Assembly: GCF_003991155.1 (NCBI RefSeq)
Contig: NZ_CP031295.1
Source: Escherichia coli
Lineage (GTDB): Bacteria; Pseudomonadota; Gammaproteobacteria; Enterobacterales; Enterobacteriaceae
Strand: one strand, 5' to 3'
Length of the DNA: 64,000 nt
Positions 10,800-29,236 of this stretch are shown here, one piece after another. The notes below the pieces were generated by a model, which was not told where the DNA came from, made no database searches, and was given only the letters and a program-made list of their open reading frames with translations. A program made the position numbers and the translations under genes. How positions within the stretch are numbered: position 1 is the stretch's first letter; every line of letters begins with the position of its first letter.

Positions 10800-12320
10800 G
10801 CAGCCGTGCAGACCCTGCGTGAGATGAACGCCGACAACCTGCGCAAGGTGCCGGCCGATGCACCCACGGCCTTCATCAAGCCGCGCTGGAAGCCGCTGGT
10901 GATCACCCCGGAAGGCCTCGACCGGAAATTCTACGAAATCTGCGCCCTGTCCGAGCTGAAGAACGCCCTGCGCTCCGGCGACATCTGGGTCAAGGCTCGC
11001 GGCAGTTCCGCGACTTCGACGACTACCTGCTGCCGGCCGAGAAGTTCGCCGCACTCAAGCGCGAGCAGGCCTGCGGCGATCAACCCGAACAGCGACCAGT
11101 ACACGGAAGAGCGTTTGCAGCTGCTGGACGAGCAGTTGGCCACCGTCACCCGCGGCCAGGACGGCAAGCTGCCCGATGCCATCCTCACCGAGTCAGGGCT
11201 GAAAATCACCCCGCTGGATGCGTGCCGGATCGGCGCAGGCGCTGATCGACCAAACCAGCCAGGTTACTGCCGCGCATCAAGATCACCGAACTGCTGATGG
11301 ACGTGGACGACTGGACGGGCTTCAGCCGCCACTTCACCCACTTGAAGGACGGGCCGAGGCCAAAGACAGGACGTTGCTGCTGTCCGCAATCCTCGGTGAT
11401 GCGATCAGCCCGGGCTGACCAAGATGGCCGAGCCGAGCCCGGCCTGACTGCCAAGCTGTCGTCGCGGCAAGCACGGCACATCCGCGACGAAACCTATTCG
11501 GCGGCCTTGGCCGAGCTGGTCAACCACCAGTATCGCCACGCCTTTGCCGCCCACTGGGGCGACGGCGACCTCATCCTCCGATGGCCAGCGCTTCCGCGCG
11601 GGTGGCCGGGCGAGAGCACCGGCACGTCAACCCGAATACGGTAGCGAGCCGGGACGGCTGTTCTACCCATATCTCCGACCAGTACGCGCCGTTCAGCACC
11701 CGCGTGGTGAATGTCGGCGTCCGCGATTCCACCTATGTGCTCGACGGCCTGCTGTACCACGGTCCGACCTGCGGATCGAGGAGCACTACACCGACACGGC
11801 CGGCCCGCGATCACGTCTTTTGCCCTGATGCACCTGCTGGGCTTCCGCTTCGCGCCGCGCATCCGCGACCTCGGCGAAACCAAGCTGTACGTGCCGCAGG
11901 GCGTGCAAGCCTACCCGACGTTGCGCCCGCTGATCGGCGGCACCCTGAACATCAAGCACGTGCGTGCCCACTGGGACGACATCCTGCGCCTGGCCAGCTC
12001 GATCAAGCAGGGCACCGTCACCGCCTCGCTGATGCTGCGCAAGCTCGGCAGCTACCCGCCAGAACGGACTGGCCGTGGCCCTGCGCGAGCTGGGCGGATC
12101 GAGCACGCTGTTCATCTGGACTGGCTGCAAAGTGTTGAACTGCGCCGCCGCGTGCATGCCGGCCTGAACAAAGGTGAGGCGCGCAACTCGCTGGCGGGGG
12201 TGTTCTTCAACCGCCTTGGGGAAATCAGGGATCGGAGCTTCGAGCAGCAGCGCTACCGGGCCAGCGGCCTCAACCTGGTGACGGCGGCTATCGTGCTGTG
12301 GAACACGGTGTACCTGGAAC
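10800..12320 (+). pseudogene. tnpA: Tn1721 tnpA' partial duplicate (3'-truncated by IS26, multiple indels)
   Basis: Near-repeat of 5543-7043 with scattered single-base indels; runs into IS26 IR at 12321. Confidence 0.7.
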
Positions 12321-13140
12321 GGCACTGTTGCAAAGTTAGCGATGAGGCAGCCTTTTGTCTTATTCAAAGGCCTTACATTTCAAAAACTCTGCTTACCAGG
12401 CGCATTTCGCCCAGGGGATCACCATAATAAAATGCTGAGGCCTGGCCTTTTGCGTAGTGCACGCATCACCTCAATACCTTTGATGGTGGCGTAAGCCGTC
12501 TTCATGGATTTAAATCCCAGCGTGGCGCCGATTATCCGTTTCAGTTTGCCATGATCGCATTCAATCACGTTGTTCCGGTACTTAATCTGTCGGTGTTCAA
12601 CGTCAGACGGCACACGGCCTTCGCGTTTGAGCAGAGCAAGCGCGCGACCATAGGCGGGCGCTTTATCCGTGTTGATGAATCGCGGGATCTGCCACTTCTT
12701 CACGTTGTTGAGGATTTTACCCAGAAACCGGTATGCAGCTTTGCTGTTACGACGGGAGGAGAGATAAAATCGACAGTGCGGCCCCGGCTGTCGACGGCCC
12801 GGTACAGATACGCCCAGCGGCCATTGACCTTCACGTAGGTTTCATCCATGTGCCACGGGCAAAGATCGGAAGGGTTACGCCAGTACCAGCGCAGCCGTTT
12901 TTCCATTTCAGGCGCATAACGCTGAACCCAGCGGTAAATCGTGGAGTGATCGACATTCACTCCGCGTTCAGCCAGCATCTCCTGCAGCTCACGGTAACTG
13001 ATGCCGTATTTGCAGTACCAGCGTACGGCCCACAGAATGATGTCACGCTGAAAATGCCGGCCTTTGAATGGGTTCATGTGCAGCTCCATCAGCAAAAGGG
13101 GATGATAAGTTTATCACCACCGACTATTTGCAACAGTGCC
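12321..13140 (-). mobile_element. IS26 (copy 2; transposase frameshifted)
   Basis: 820 bp between IS26 IRs; homopolymer-length and base differences versus copy 1 break the tnp26 frame. Confidence 0.85.
12373..13077 (-). pseudogene. tnp26: IS26 tnp26 with frameshifts
   Basis: Split into ORFs 12700-13095 and 12419-12703. Confidence 0.8.
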
Positions 13141-13479
13141 CGCCCGCCTATGGTCGCGCGCTTGCTCTGCTCAAACGCGAAGGCCGGTGCCCGTCTGACG
13201 TTGAACACCGACAGATTAAGTACCGGAACAACGTGATTGAATGCGATCATGGCAAACTGAAACGGATAATCGGCGCCACGCTGGGATTTAAATCCATGAA
13301 GACGGCTTACGCCACCATCAAAGGTATTGAGGTGATGCGTGCACTACGCAAAGGCCAGGCCTCAGCATTTTATTATGGTGATCCCCTGGGCGAAATGCGC
13401 CTGGTAAGCAGAGTTTTTGAAATGTAAGGCCTTTGAATAAGACAAAAGGCTGCCTCATCGCTAACTTTGCAACAGTGCC
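13141..13479 (+). mobile_element. IS26, 3' partial copy (left arm of Tn4352-like unit, interrupted by IS26 copy 2)
   Basis: Begins inside tnp26 (CGCCCGCCTATGGTCGCGCG) directly abutting copy 2 IR; ends with IS26 IR at 13479. Confidence 0.8.
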
Positions 13480-13616
13480 AATTTATGAGTAAAGGATTAT
13501 GTCCACGATAAGCACCTGGGTCGATTCCTGGGAGGCGGCCATGAGGGTAGGGAAGCGCCGTCCCGTCAAGTCAGCGTAATGCTCTGCCAGTGTTACAACC
13601 AATTAACCAATTCTGA

Positions 13617-14432
13617 TTAGAAAAACTCATCGAGCATCAAATGAAACTGCAATTTATTCATATCAGGATTATCAATACCATATTTTTGAAAAAGCCGTTT
13701 CTGTAATGAAGGAGAAAACTCACCGAGGCAGTTCCATAGGATGGCAAGATCCTGGTATCGGTCTGCGATTCCGACTCGTCCAACATCAATACAACCTATT
13801 AATTTCCCCTCGTCAAAAATAAGGTTATCAAGTGAGAAATCACCATGAGTGACGACTGAATCCGGTGAGAATGGCAAAAGCTTATGCATTTCTTTCCAGA
13901 CTTGTTCAACAGGCCAGCCATTACGCTCGTCATCAAAATCACTCGCATCAACCAAACCGTTATTCATTCGTGATTGCGCCTGAGCGAGACGAAATACGCG
14001 ATCGCTGTTAAAAGGACAATTACAAACAGGAATCGAATGCAACCGGCGCAGGAACACTGCCAGCGCATCAACAATATTTTCACCTGAATCAGGATATTCT
14101 TCTAATACCTGGAATGCTGTTTTCCCGGGGATCGCAGTGGTGAGTAACCATGCATCATCAGGAGTACGGATAAAATGCTTGATGGTCGGAAGAGGCATAA
14201 ATTCCGTCAGCCAGTTTAGTCTGACCATCTCATCTGTAACATCATTGGCAACGCTACCTTTGCCATGTTTCAGAAACAACTCTGGCGCATCGGGCTTCCC
14301 ATACAATCGATAGATTGTCGCACCTGATTGCCCGACATTATCGCGAGCCCATTTATACCCATATAAATCAGCATCCATGTTGGAATTTAATCGCGGCCTC
14401 GAGCAAGACGTTTCCCGTTGAATATGGCTCAT
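13617..14432 (-). CDS. aph(3')-Ia: Aminoglycoside 3'-phosphotransferase APH(3')-Ia
   Basis: 271 aa MSHIQRETSCSRPRLNSNMDADLYGYKWARDNVGQSGATIYRLYGK... = Tn903 aphA1. Confidence 0.95.
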   Translation of the reverse strand: MSHIQRETSCSRPRLNSNMDADLYGYKWARDNVGQSGATIYRLYGKPDAPELFLKHGKGSVANDVTDEMVRLNWLTEFMPLPTIKHFIRTPDDAWLLTTAIPGKTAFQVLEEYPDSGENIVDALAVFLRRLHSIPVCNCPFNSDRVFRLAQAQSRMNNGLVDASDFDDERNGWPVEQVWKEMHKLLPFSPDSVVTHGDFSLDNLIFDEGKLIGCIDVGRVGIADRYQDLAILWNCLGEFSPSLQKRLFQKYGIDNPDMNKLQFHLMLDEFF

Positions 14433-14519
14433 AACACCCCTTGTATTACTGTTTATGTAAGCAGACAGTTTTATTGTTCATGATGATATATTTTTATCTT
14501 GTGCAATGTAACATCAGAG

Positions 14520-15339
14520 GGCACTGTTGCAAATAGTCGGTGGTGATAAACTTATCATCCCCTTTTGCTGATGGAGCTGCACATGAACCCATTCAAAGGC
14601 CGGCATTTTCAGCGTGACATCATTCTGTGGGCCGTACGCTGGTACTGCAAATACGGCATCAGTTACCGTGAGCTGCAGGAGATGCTGGCTGAACGCGGAG
14701 TGAATGTCGATCACTCCACGATTTACCGCTGGGTTCAGCGTTATGCGCCTGAAATGGAAAAACGGCTGCGCTGGTACTGGCGTAACCCTTCCGATCTTTG
14801 CCCGTGGCACATGGATGAAACCTACGTGAAGGTCAATGGCCGCTGGGCGTATCTGTACCGGGCCGTCGACAGCCGGGGCCGCACTGTCGATTTTTATATC
14901 TCCTCCCGTCGTAACAGCAAAGCTGCATACCGGTTTCTGGGTAAAATCCTCAACAACGTGAAGAAGTGGCAGATCCCGCGATTCATCAACACGGATAAAG
15001 CGCCCGCCTATGGTCGCGCGCTTGCTCTGCTCAAACGCGAAGGCCGGTGCCCGTCTGACGTTGAACACCGACAGATTAAGTACCGGAACAACGTGATTGA
15101 ATGCGATCATGGCAAACTGAAACGGATAATCGGCGCCACGCTGGGATTTAAATCCATGAAGACGGCTTACGCCACCATCAAAGGTATTGAGGTGATGCGT
15201 GCACTACGCAAAGGCCAGGCCTCAGCATTTTATTATGGTGATCCCCTGGGCGAAATGCGCCTGGTAAGCAGAGTTTTTGAAATGTAAGGCCTTTGAATAA
15301 GACAAAAGGCTGCCTCATCGCTAACTTTGCAACAGTGCC
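14520..15339 (+). mobile_element. IS26 (copy 3, 820 bp)
   Basis: IS26 IRs at both ends; intact tnp26. Confidence 0.95.
14583..15287 (+). CDS. tnp26: IS26 transposase Tnp26
   Basis: 234 aa; one substitution versus copy 1 (DFYISS vs DFYLSS). Confidence 0.95.
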
Positions 15340-15660
15340 ACGAACAGCACCTTCAGATAATGGTATCCAGTCAATTTGTGCCTTCATAATACCAGTCATC
15401 GCTCCATGTCGTTCCGGAGAGCACCACACCATTCCTTCAGACCAGCGAACCAGTTCACGCAACTCCATAACTTTTGGATGTGATTCCGGTGCATCATCAG
15501 GAAGTGGAAGGCCAGATGGATTAAAAATGCGGACGTCTGCGCCCATTGCAGTTAACAAACGGCCTGCTTCCTCTGTCGCCAGTCGACTGTATGAGCGCTC
15601 ACGAACTGAGCCATAAAGCATTAGAATACGAGGTGGGTGAGATATTGCCGGTATCCCCAT
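15340..15660 (-). pseudogene. arsH: arsH (NADPH-dependent FMN reductase), 3'-truncated by IS26
   Basis: N-terminal approx 107 aa [27 protein letters not shown]... ArsH-like; reading frame runs into IS26. Confidence 0.6.
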
Positions 15661-25917: not shown

Positions 25918-28143
25918 TCAGTCGTCATTTTCCAGCGCTGTTTTGAGCGCTTCCTGCTCCGGAGTCAGCTCGTTGCCGGACAGCATAACCTTCAACTTCT
26001 CTTCGACTGCTGGCCAGTCATCAAAGAACGGACTGACCTGGTCACGCGCAATCCGGCGATATGCCCCTCGGTGGGAGCTGAAGACACTGGTCTGTAATCG
26101 TATCAACAGGTTAACAAGGCCTTCATCAGTGGTAGTAACTTCTCTGACCCATTGCTTCACGGTTTCACCTGAACTCATGTCTCTCCAGGCGTAGAGATAC
26201 CCGAGAAGAGACTTGCGCAGGAGAAGCTGTTGCTGAAGTTCTGGTTGATTCATACGTTCCGCAAACCTGTCACGCAACCGTTCCGTAATATCGCGACTGA
26301 AAAGAGCGTCTGAAGGCGAAGGTACTGCATTCTGAGCAAGTCCATGTTCCCAGATAAGATCCCGCATAAAATCGGCTATCCAGAACGGCGAAGCACCCGT
26401 AACGATCAGTTTTTCCATAAGCGTGATCGTTCTGGTCTCATCAATATCCTGCATATGCTTCAGCAGATGCCGTACAACCTCATTAATGGCCATTTCACGC
26501 AGGGAAAACCATGGGTTACGGATACTGAAGCGAGTGCTCACCTCATCGGTGTGATCGAAGAAAAAATGAACCAGTCCTGCGCACTCTTCGAAATTACGTT
26601 CTCTTATCAGGCCTGGAGTCAGTCTGCTCAGTATATGTTCAAACCAGGTTCCGGACAGACTGCCCACACTGTTGATTTTTGAGAGCAGCAATTCAGAAAG
26701 CTGCTGCTGTTTTTCCGATACGCCAGCCTGTTCAAAAAGCTGTCTGAAGAATTCAGGTGGCAGAACATTCTGTGGTGAGGAGAAGGCAAAATAATATCGC
26801 CAGTGCGTCAGGCTGCTGAGTCGTTTACCGGTCGTCTGGATATGACGAAAATCCTCACTGACGGGCTCAAAAAGATTCAGATATTCATCATTATGTCCAC
26901 TGATACCTGGGATCCAGTCTGCAAGTGTCAGAAACGAGTCTGCATTTGATGCCCTGAACGTCTTCATACATCTGATAAGCCCCTCCCGGAAGTCTGCTTT
27001 CTCTCCGTCAGAAAGCATACCCTGACCGGTTTCAATCACGGACCGTTCTGTCAGGTAATGCTCTGTCCAGTCATACAGAGCCGGGTTTGTCACCCGTATA
27101 AGCTGAAGCAGGCACAAATCAGGGAAATAAACAAAATCCCGCATCCCCGGATAAAGAAAAATCAGGGAATTAATGGCCTGATGGATTTCCCGTGGCGTCG
27201 AAAGTGCGGCACCATAGGTATCAGTCACCGCGATGAGATCCCTTACCATTCCAGAGTCTGGCGGTTGATTATTAATTTGCTGATATAGAGCCTCAGCCCG
27301 CTGGCGAAATTCATTACGTAAATCAAAGGCTTCAGGTCGGGGTAATTTAAAACTAAGCTGAATGATTTTCTGGAGATAACGGCTGCCATCTTCGATATTC
27401 AGCGCATGTTCAACGGCATGAGTGATAATCTGCCTGTCATAACAGAGAATATGGGTAAAGCGGGGCAGATCGGCTACTGCACGCACAAGCCTGAACACTT
27501 CCGCCACCTGGGATGGCTCCAGTCGGTCCAGATCATCCATGACAACAATGAACTTCAGATCCAGACTCACCAGTTGTCCTGCAATTTCAGCCCGAAGCTT
27601 TGTCGTGGTTTTCTGATCAACAGCCAGACGGCTGTCTGAAAATACCTTTATTCCGCCTGCTATCCAGTTAATAATGCTGGAAAACTGTCCGATATATTGA
27701 ACCAGTGGAAGGACGCGCGATGAAGTATCCTGAGCATACTCAATCACTTTTTGAGCTTCCGGTGACAACAGATATTTACGCCAGAGCTTTTTGAAGCCCT
27801 TCGGGGGATAGCGTATTTCCATTTCCTGCTGGATAACCGTGGCAACCGGAAGAAAGAGCGCTTCAACCGGACTGCCGCCACTCAGCCAGGGAGAAATATG
27901 CAGCACATGCGTGTGAGCATCTTTTTTCAGGGCAAGGTTTCTCAGGATCAGATTAAGGAGGCTTGTTTTACCCGATCCCCATGCACCTTCTATTCCGACA
28001 ACATTTGAAGCCTCCAGAGGAAGAGTAAGGATGGAACGGGATATATTTTCTGCGATATTACCGAAACCGTATCGATCCTCAGGTACATCTTCAACTGCCG
28101 CATCAAGCCCTTTCTGGTTCCACAGCTGCCTCAGTATCTTCAT
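25918..28143 (-). CDS. KAP family P-loop NTPase
   Basis: 741 aa; Walker A GAWGSGKTS, Walker B FIVVMDDLDRL; large size typical of KAP NTPases. Confidence 0.6.
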   Translation of the reverse strand: MKILRQLWNQKGLDAAVEDVPEDRYGFGNIAENISRSILTLPLEASNVVGIEGAWGSGKTSLLNLILRNLALKKDAHTHVLHISPWLSGGSPVEALFLPVATVIQQEMEIRYPPKGFKKLWRKYLLSPEAQKVIEYAQDTSSRVLPLVQYIGQFSSIINWIAGGIKVFSDSRLAVDQKTTTKLRAEIAGQLVSLDLKFIVVMDDLDRLEPSQVAEVFRLVRAVADLPRFTHILCYDRQIITHAVEHALNIEDGSRYLQKIIQLSFKLPRPEAFDLRNEFRQRAEALYQQINNQPPDSGMVRDLIAVTDTYGAALSTPREIHQAINSLIFLYPGMRDFVYFPDLCLLQLIRVTNPALYDWTEHYLTERSVIETGQGMLSDGEKADFREGLIRCMKTFRASNADSFLTLADWIPGISGHNDEYLNLFEPVSEDFRHIQTTGKRLSSLTHWRYYFAFSSPQNVLPPEFFRQLFEQAGVSEKQQQLSELLLSKINSVGSLSGTWFEHILSRLTPGLIRERNFEECAGLVHFFFDHTDEVSTRFSIRNPWFSLREMAINEVVRHLLKHMQDIDETRTITLMEKLIVTGASPFWIADFMRDLIWEHGLAQNAVPSPSDALFSRDITERLRDRFAERMNQPELQQQLLLRKSLLGYLYAWRDMSSGETVKQWVREVTTTDEGLVNLLIRLQTSVFSSHRGAYRRIARDQVSPFFDDWPAVEEKLKVMLSGNELTPEQEALKTALENDD

Positions 28144-28144
28144 A

Positions 28145-29236
28145 TTACAGATCTCCGTACAGGCAGCGCAGCCCGGTCAGGGCCTCCGCCAGCGGGCCTT
28201 CTTGACACCGCGTGGCGAGCTCCCGGACCAGCGTCTCAAAGGCCTCCGCCGGCATAAAAATCCGCAGGCCGTCTATCCCGAAGAAGCCCTCCGGCGTGAC
28301 GTTTCCGGGCGGGGAGAACATCACTCGCTCCCCCTGGTGACCGTGCGTCAGGGCTTCCGGATGCCGGGCATACAGCGTGAACAGGCCCAGCAGTTCGGAT
28401 AACGCTTCCCAGCCGTACGGCACCACGAAGTCCTGGCCGGTGATCAGCAGGTGCAGACGGGGTGTGGTGTACCAGGCCCCCGGGCGTTCTCCGGGGTGCT
28501 GGCCGTCAACGCGGATCTCCAGGCGCAGCGTGCCGGCCTCAATGGTTTCCGTGACGGCAGAAATAACCGGGCGCAGCTCCTGTGCCAGCGTTCTTGCCTG
28601 TTCTGTGTTCCAGTCCAGGCCGCGCAGCATCAACGGGAAAACAGCTTTCAGCCGCGGCAGGGTGAAGATTTCTGCCAGCACCGCGTCCGGCACCTCCGCC
28701 AGGCCAAAACAGTCGCTCTCGAGCGGACGCAGGAGGTGTTCGGCATACATCTGATCCACCACGGGGCGCAGCGCTGCCCGGAAGGCTTCAAACTCTTCCG
28801 TCCAGTTTTTCCCGGCCAGGCGGAAAATCCCCTTCAGGTAGTGACCGTCCACAGGGCGATCGTGCTCCACCTGCCAGGCCAGCAGGTTGCCAGTGATGTC
28901 CAGCAGCGTGTCCAGGGCCGGGAGTGTGGCCAGCCTATTATGCCCGCGCAGGAAGGCCTCCCTGACGTGAACCAGGACAAAGCGCAGTTCGTCGCGGGAG
29001 AGCGCTGACGTGCCGAAGGTCTGGCCCAGAATGATATGCCGGTACAGCTGCCGGACCGTGGCCTCCGGATCGGCAATGAGCTGAAAATACCCGTCACCGG
29101 GCGCGACCGTTTTCAGGCCGTCATCGAGGAAGCGTTCGGCTAGGGCGTTGACCGAAGTATTTTCCCGACCGGCACGCGTTTTCAGCGCCTCGATAAGTTT
29201 TTTGTGAAAACGCAGGTTAAGCTGGCTTAGCATCAT
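28145..29236 (-). CDS. ribbon-helix-helix (Arc/MetJ-like) domain protein with large uncharacterised C-terminal domain
   Basis: N-terminus MMLSQLNLRFHKKLIEALKTRAGRENTSVNALAERFL resembles Arc-type RHH; GC-rich; stop overlaps KAP start (ATGA). Confidence 0.45.
   Translation of the reverse strand: MMLSQLNLRFHKKLIEALKTRAGRENTSVNALAERFLDDGLKTVAPGDGYFQLIADPEATVRQLYRHIILGQTFGTSALSRDELRFVLVHVREAFLRGHNRLATLPALDTLLDITGNLLAWQVEHDRPVDGHYLKGIFRLAGKNWTEEFEAFRAALRPVVDQMYAEHLLRPLESDCFGLAEVPDAVLAEIFTLPRLKAVFPLMLRGLDWNTEQARTLAQELRPVISAVTETIEAGTLRLEIRVDGQHPGERPGAWYTTPRLHLLITGQDFVVPYGWEALSELLGLFTLYARHPEALTHGHQGERVMFSPPGNVTPEGFFGIDGLRIFMPAEAFETLVRELATRCQEGPLAEALTGLRCLYGDL

Follow-up and report, generated by a model that had tools for sequence, protein, structure and literature searches.

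Within a 64,000-nucleotide stretch of an Escherichia coli plasmid contig (NZ_CP031295.1, assembly GCF_003991155.1; hereafter the window), we analyzed a resistance region in which a full-length copy of the insertion sequence (IS) IS26 lies directly against a truncated, oppositely oriented IS26, followed by the kanamycin/neomycin resistance gene aph(3')-Ia and a further IS26. The analysis revealed that what is preserved here is one junction of an IS26-into-IS26 event and not a nest of one element inside the other. This junction, designated J1, is best read as a copy-in (replicative) scar at the octamer formed by bp 482-489 of the left IS26 of the transposon Tn4352, inherited clonally, and we put the probability of this reading at about 0.8 to 0.9. 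In such an event, the left inverted repeat (IRL) end of one IS26 would have been joined, in inverted orientation, to CGCCCGCC inside the left Tn4352 IS26, and one of the two products would have been kept here.

IS26 copies and the junction J1

Using copy D (14520-15339, plus strand) as the reference for IS26 numbering and as the BLAST query against the window, we detected exactly four IS26 matches, designated A to D (Table 1). With matches of 339 to 820 bp at 99-100% identity, chance is no issue. The search reproduced to the base the boundaries given in an earlier note on this DNA (12321-13140, 13141-13479 and the end at 15339) and bore out its description of a partial IS26 that abuts the terminus of an oppositely oriented IS26 and is followed by aph(3')-Ia and a third IS26.

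Copy B has the length of this IS6-family element, 820 bp, and the 14-bp perfect terminal inverted repeat GGCACTGTTGCAAA is present at both of its termini, as it is at both ends of D. The description of B as a complete IS26 in the earlier note thus held for its length and both ends, but not for its transposase gene, tnp26, which is frameshifted as sequenced. Compared with the other copies, B contains four single-base indels, at IS26 bp 372, 527, 531 and 690, and instead of a single 234-amino-acid (aa) open reading frame (ORF) for the IS6-family DDE transposase, its minus strand carries ORFs of 131 and 94 aa, split by the indels at bp 372 and 690. The word complete applies to the length and ends of B only. 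The Tnp26 of copy D is intact (234 aa; IS6 family transposase, 274 bits, full profile). Remnant C, which is identical to 15001-15339 of D in a repeat search, comprises the right inverted repeat (IRR) end and the final 112 tnp26 codons, and it lacks the IRL and bp 1-481. Copy D also carries a private C-to-A change at bp 379 (window position 14898), predicted to give L106I in Tnp26; A and B have C at this position, which is the one difference between A and D. In pSMS35_130, a plasmid of E. coli SMS-3-5, all nine full IS26 copies are one base off D, and the D-aligned copy has C at bp 379.

The position of J1 is unambiguous, as the final base of B (13140) is C and bp 481 of IS26 is G. B and C are in inverted orientation, and the break falls 481 bp inside the interrupted IS26. 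The exact coincidence of J1 with an IS26 terminus shows that one IS26 transposed into another, in agreement with what had been proposed. The nested structure itself was not recovered: IS26 bp 1-481 (or 1-489) are nowhere in the window by BLAST, and the far side of B, where they would be sought, is instead a remnant (tnpA') of the transposase gene of Tn1721. A nested IS has both halves of its target flanking the insert, together with a duplicated octamer. At B only one half is found, and the 8 bp on its two sides differ (CCTGGAAC at 12313-12320 versus CGCCCGCC at 13141-13148), so that the 8-bp target site duplication (TSD), for which the earlier note had suggested inspecting the junctions, is not there. 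Its absence is expected if B arose in, or later joined, an intramolecular event or an exchange. In an IS-oriented comparison of 8-bp flanks, the left flanks of A, B and D matched no right flank of A to D, yielding neither a TSD nor a tracer pair; the flanks of copy A are GTCGAAGT on the left and AAAAATAG on the right.

An 828-nt inverted repeat (4715-5542 and 14520-15347) had suggested that A and D share an 8-bp flank at their IRR ends. This candidate was dismissed, as AAAAATAG and ACGAACAG are identical at just 5/8 positions and the extra 8 nt represent a tolerant extension, not a tracer. A 119-aa ORF (13068-13427, plus strand) was also noted, which begins within the IRL end of B and runs in frame across J1 into the last 112 tnp26 codons of C, and which could encode a putative C-terminal Tnp26 fragment.

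The interrupted IS26 belongs to a Tn4352 remnant

The claim that the left IS26 of a Tn4352-like unit was the one hit is supported by the 1,040-bp passenger, by aph(3')-Ia and by the right-hand IS26, which is oriented like the remnant. Among IS26-bounded aphA1 transposons, a passenger of 1,040 bp is specific to Tn4352 (PMC12670165, Table 1; PMC4894685), other such units having passengers of 931, 1,254, 2,296 or 4,364 bp (PMC12670165, Table 1), and it is this length, with aphA1a inside, that is found at 13480-14519. The encoded protein scored 649.9 bits against the NCBIfam model APH_3p_Ia (NF051474; cut-off 625). Tn4352 has two complete, directly oriented IS26 copies, and of these only D is whole here, the left one being reduced to bp 482-820; the unit is a Tn4352 remnant, not Tn4352. 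In the variant Tn4352B, the inner IS26 boundary has gained GG and reads GGGGG (PMC7986276), while the boundary at the IRL of D reads ...CATCAGAG/GGCACTG, with the three G of the wild-type form. From 13141 to 14897, there are zero differences from pSMS35_130.

Because C is without the IRL and most of tnp26, the remnant would no longer be an IS26-bounded pseudo-compound transposon able to move. The resistance gene appears untouched: with its 5' end toward D and the truncation downstream, its expression should be unaffected. C and the 3' 339 bp of D form perfect direct repeats with a spacing of 1,860 bp (820 + 1,040), and RecA recombination between them could still excise a circle that amounts to a whole IS26-aphA1 translocatable unit.

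J0, J1 and the reciprocal junction in public records

We searched public records for J1, for J0 (the junction between tnpA' and the IRR end of B) and for the reciprocal junction, J2, in which IS26 bp 1-489 is joined to the IRR end of an inverted IS26 and which overlaps J1 by the octamer 482-489. The queries consisted of 27 + 27 nt, such that only a junction-spanning 28-mer can seed, and an end-to-end match was required; they replaced earlier 160-nt queries, which were confounded by the merging of two nearby IS26 pieces as one place. J1 was exact in 64 of the 72,556 PLSDB plasmids, including pSMS35_130, and J0 was likewise exact in 64. The two sets of records are largely the same, with 11 of the 15 listed J1 records among the 60 listed J0 records, and a pre-event state with J0 and without J1 was not evident in PLSDB, the counts being equal (64 and 64). 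At least 80% of the 5-kb block was present in 43 plasmids. At least 80% of the tnpA'-B-C stretch was present in 105 of 5,426 complete E. coli genomes, a coverage that can be reached by tnpA' and B alone and is by itself no proof of J1; the 12 matches listed all span the whole query. In one strain, J0 and J1 are located on different plasmids (CP060925 and CP060926), indicating that B has since taken part in exchanges. A literature search found no description of the exact J1 junction.

J2 was found as a single uninterrupted match in two PLSDB plasmids only, CP100103 and CP048414, both Klebsiella pneumoniae IncFII plasmids. Their outer flanks are unrelated to the window, Tn1721 or Tn4352 and differ from each other, and in both of them IS26 bp 482-820 are absent from the far side of the inserted IS26. 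Exact J2 was present in 0 of the 5,426 complete E. coli genomes, and it was not found in the window or in the complete pSMS35_130, which holds nine full IS26 copies and, as the only remnant, 482-820. These results indicated that the reciprocal product has not been kept in the J1 lineage. The presence of J2 with the predicted 8-bp overlap in the two Klebsiella plasmids, in turn, showed that the octamer is an ordinary copy-in target that yields an 8-bp duplication.

The Klebsiella J2 is either the result of independent insertion at the same octamer or a descendant of the reciprocal product. The joint reading, by which bp 482-489 (CGCCCGCC) are a recurrent self-target or J2 is the surviving reciprocal product of the J1 event, seems to us improbable. 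If the octamer were a recurrent self-target, J1 and J2 would be independent events with the same octamer and orientation, pointing to sequence or structure selectivity of Tnp26 inside its own element. If J2 were the reciprocal product, it would trace a plasmid fusion or the transfer of a circle between E. coli and Klebsiella lineages (KPC-era plasmids).

The reaction that made J1

The targeted conservative reaction of Tnp26 joins at IS ends, is precise and in experiments always yields directly oriented, whole IS26 copies (PMC4894685), while the signature of untargeted copy-in is a precise IS terminus, an internal target and a missing TSD (PMC4471558; PMC7986276), the loss of the TSD at the flanks being expected after intramolecular copy-in events (PMC4471558; PMC7986276). 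The earlier note had linked the structure to the element's known preference for targeting IS26 copies already in place, and two reports (PMC4894685; PMC4196232) do state that IS26 strongly prefers incorporation beside another IS26. That preference reflects the targeted conservative reaction, which, however, leaves both copies whole, direct and joined at their ends, whereas here B is inverted relative to C, and one copy is cut at bp 482, with the target 481 bp into the IS. A targeted conservative origin of J1 is thus contradicted by orientation and by the internal breakpoint, and we consider it extremely improbable; the adjacency of two IS26 copies does not by itself point to that pathway. Self-attack (autointegration) by the Tn4352 IS26 was also rejected, as it would put the inverted aphA1 side, not Tn1721 tnpA', left of B.

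From strand-transfer geometry, we infer that four copy-in routes, namely cis attack (adjacent deletion), trans attack (inversion), intermolecular cointegration, and simple insertion followed by exchange, would yield identical J1 and J2 sequences and differ only in where J2 is located. In intramolecular replicative transposition of IS26, attack in cis gives an adjacent deletion and attack in trans an inversion (PMC4471558, He et al. 2015; PMC7986276, Varani et al. 2021). Among these routes we tentatively favor the one-step intramolecular cis route, to which we assign somewhat less than half of the total probability. In this scheme, IS26 B would already have been in place where the Tn1721 tnpA' remnant is cut off, the Tn4352 IS26 further along the same molecule would have been attacked by the IRL end of B, and the intervening DNA together with IS26 bp 1-481 would have been lost as a circle. 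The tet(A) gene of the Tn1721 segment and aph(3')-Ia would thereby have been fused into one IS26-studded resistance region, which IncF plasmids of the ColV/ColBM type in E. coli would since have passed on as one piece. The cis deletion is favored because it explains without any further event why J2 is missing from all E. coli records: the reciprocal product would have been lost at once on a non-replicating circle, which fits the absence of the exact reciprocal junction from the 5,426 genomes.

Several points weigh against this account. The topology is undecidable from J1, since cis deletion, cointegrate, trans inversion and a nest followed by loss share the same J1 sequence. For the deletion route, an ancestor carrying Tn4352 on the IRL side of B must have existed, and none with B beside tnpA' and an intact Tn4352 downstream was found among the J0 and J1 matches in PLSDB. 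If the Klebsiella J2 came from the same event, the deletion model would need the excised circle to have been re-integrated. Moreover, the tnp26 of B is frameshifted here and could not catalyze as sequenced; the same copy is intact in relatives.

An intermolecular cointegrate or an intramolecular trans inversion, with J2 later lost from the lineage, is possible but doubtful. It accounts for the same J1 sequence, the same absence of a TSD around B and the exact 8-bp overlap of J2 in two plasmids; IS26 inversions of this kind are common (PMC4471558), and the A-D segment is inverted relative to the backbone between the window and pSMS35_130, showing that inversions do occur in the region. With J2 missing from the window, from pSMS35_130 and from the 5,426 E. 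coli genomes, however, at least one extra loss event is demanded, and the J2 carriers are Klebsiella IncFII plasmids whose flanks are unrelated to Tn1721/Tn4352 and mutually different. A true nest, (1-489)-IS26-(482-820), made by cointegrate formation and resolution, whose left half was then replaced at B through homologous exchange with another IS26 or through an IS26-mediated deletion from the IRR end of B into Tn1721, appears unlikely. Although J1 at an IS26 terminus, the existence of J2 with its 8-bp overlap and the exchange of flanks between IS26 copies in this plasmid family (J0 and J1 apart on CP060925 and CP060926) are in keeping with such a history, it takes two or three events where one suffices, the complete nest is absent among the exact J2 matches, neither J2 plasmid having 482-820 on the far side, and B is without a TSD. 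Finally, J1 could be an assembly artefact at a repeated element in an error-prone record, which carries dense indels at 5543-7000 and 11000-12770, four of them inside B and none shared by any public record. Yet the identical junction and gene order recur in 64 plasmid records obtained independently, across several genera and with several sequencing technologies, which makes an artefact barely credible. The copy-in scar at bp 482-489, perhaps left by a cis deletion of the kind outlined above, remains the account that we prefer.

The Tn1721 tet segment

Left of B, the window holds a Tn1721-derived segment, assigned by its collinearity with the annotated region of pSMS35_130 together with ORFs (Table 1). 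Its gene order is that of the Tn1721 tet module, with tetR(A), tet(A) and pecM and then an incomplete second copy of the tnpA 3' end (5543-6873 versus 11013-12320), and the terminal inverted repeat of Tn1721 has been removed by B. The ORF at 11711-12320 matches the Tn3-family transposase profile NF033527 (positions 747-916 of 954), and the tnpA' remnant is annotated as Tn3 family transposase in CP074360. Copy B physically links this remnant to the Tn4352 remnant, in line with the suggestion that it unites the two transposon fragments. Copies A and B have the same orientation and bracket the Tn1721-derived segment; as direct repeats around tet(A), they could form a second translocatable unit.

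Table 1. Coordinates of IS26 copies, junctions and associated genes (window positions unless an accession is given)
Feature	Position	Strand	Description
IS26 copy A	4723-5542	minus	820 bp, 99.9% identity to D
Tn1721-derived segment	5543-10779	plus	Opens with 3' part of tnpA (from 5543)
tetR(A)	~7378-8028	minus	Within Tn1721-derived segment
tet(A)	~8134-9330	plus	Within Tn1721-derived segment
pecM/EamA	9469-10245	minus	Within Tn1721-derived segment
tnpA' remnant, tet end of Tn1721	10780-12320	plus	3' end cut by IRR end of B
Junction J0	12320/12321		tnpA' joined to IRR end of IS26 B
IS26 copy B	12321-13140	minus	Full length, 820 bp, 99.4% identity to D
tnp26 pieces of B	12700-13095 and 12419-12703	minus	ORFs matching IS6 transposase profile 1-99 and 120-202
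Junction J1	13127-13148		IRL terminus of B (...TTTGCAACAGTGCC) joined to IS26 bp 482-489 (CGCCCGCC), inferred target octamer
IS26 remnant C	13141-13479	plus	339 bp, 100% identity, IS26 bp 482-820
Tn4352 passenger	13480-14519		1,040 bp between C and D
aph(3')-Ia (aphA1a)	13617-14432	minus	Kanamycin/neomycin resistance, 271-aa ORF
IS26 copy D	14520-15339	plus	820 bp, reference; right-hand IS26 of Tn4352
J2 loci	CP100103 5676-6898; CP048414 5592-6900		IS26 ending at bp 489 abuts IRR of inverted complete IS26

Sequence quality of the record

The indels in B belong to two indel-rich stretches (~5543-7000 and ~11000-12770), which correspond to the two direct copies of the Tn1721 tnpA 3' region plus half of IS26 B. 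The tnpA 3' copies are 94.6% alike with 31 gap openings, and their reading frames are repeatedly broken. An alignment of 6200-15356 with pSMS35_130 contained 43 gap openings, and the flanking backbone is 99.9-100% identical; the changes are mostly bases lost or gained in G+C-rich runs or homopolymers. The indels are shared by no public record, the best matches reaching 98.0-98.1% among the 5,426 E. coli genomes and 99.4-99.5% over 25 kb in PLSDB. Judged from these patterns, the indels of B and the indel-rich stretches are probably sequencing errors of the source record. As a caution, an IS26 that is complete in length may have a broken transposase gene, or the record may contain sequencing errors.

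Other features of the plasmid window

Three repeats of ~768 bp in mixed orientation (35332-36099, 41370-42137 and 57620-58387), with a 480-bp partial copy at 3654-4133, correspond to elements annotated as IS1 in pSMS35_130 and bracket the colicin, sit and aerobactin regions. A siderophore cluster of five ORFs comes after a gene of the major facilitator superfamily (47890-49083, minus strand), the whole spanning 47890-57190. The products of the five ORFs are 595, 315, 580, 425 and 733 aa long; the first and third match SbnC/SbnF-type synthetase families, the fourth an N-monooxygenase and the fifth a TonB-dependent siderophore receptor, and the 315-aa ORF gave no family match. On these family matches, the cluster is read as a putative aerobactin operon, iucABCD-iutA. 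It is absent from pSMS35_130, and, with the sit and colicin regions that are common with pSMS35_130, it marks the window as part of a ColV-type virulence plasmid.

The interval 25918-29236 (minus strand) holds an intact, F-type pifA (741 aa; PADLOC PifA, E = 2.9e-290; KAP NTPase domain) and, after it, an ORF of 363 aa; in pSMS35_130, pifA is cut by IS26 at 106500. A tandem array of 43-bp repeats (60814-61544; 12 registers, 62-100% identity) adjoins homologues of sopA and sopB, which is the layout of the F-plasmid sopC partition site.

Significance of the junction

Many public plasmids already carry this structure in annotated form, and the mechanism is textbook IS26 biology; both are already known. 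Its biological weight is small, in that it shows the linkage of Tn1721 tet(A) and Tn4352 aph(3')-Ia on ColV/ColBM-type IncF virulence plasmids. Since J1 is rare (64 of 72,556 PLSDB plasmids), it is a convenient lineage marker for this resistance region, applicable in polymerase chain reaction or k-mer screening.

Comparison with known systems

The oldest familiar example of the tet(A)-IS26-ΔIS26-aph(3')-Ia-IS26 region is found in pSMS35_130 (NC_010488.1, ~117.8-127.8 kb). In this plasmid and in 63 other PLSDB plasmids, for example CP074360, the order, the orientations, J0 and J1 are the same to the base, and the passenger and aph(3')-Ia of pSMS35_130 are identical to those of the window. The two differ in that IS26 B is annotated as intact in pSMS35_130 and is frameshifted in the window, and in that the A-D block is flipped relative to the backbone, pSMS35_130 being opposite to the window and to CP074360. 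Recombination between A and D, which are inverted IS26 copies, could account for the latter. In an alignment of window 4723-15339 with pSMS35_130 117795-127808, the ArsR/permease side follows D on the right in the window, but in pSMS35_130 it is to the left of the block.

A further IS26 copy-in event has split Tn1721 tnpA in pSMS35_130, while the window keeps the unsplit state. There, the right flank of the IS26 at 85310-86129 equals the left flank of the IS26 at 117795-118614, both being the octamer TCCCGGCT, and the Tn1721 tnpA pieces beside this tracer are contiguous in the window at ~6199-6206. The octamer is found at 86130-86137 and 118615-118622 of pSMS35_130, next to IS26 copies 31 kb apart. 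This matched tracer is an internal positive control for IS26 copy-in in the plasmid family.

With Tn4352/PTn4352 (M20306; IS26-aphA1a-IS26), the window shares the 1,040-bp passenger, aph(3')-Ia, the right IS26 and a co-oriented left remnant; unlike in Tn4352, the left IS26 consists only of bp 482-820, and no flanking 8-bp duplication is identifiable. Like the products of intramolecular replicative events, J1 and its surroundings display a precise IS end at a new target, the loss of the abutting TSD and hybrid flanks. The J1 target, however, lies inside another IS26, and the topology is not recoverable from the available data. Targeted conservative cointegration and the incorporation of translocatable units (Harmer and Hall, PMC4196232, PMC4894685) share with the window the involvement of two IS26 copies and the building of multi-resistance arrays. 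Their products, however, are direct and whole and have no internal breakpoint, and this pathway is not the origin of J1; the targeted conservative route probably explains other parts of the region.

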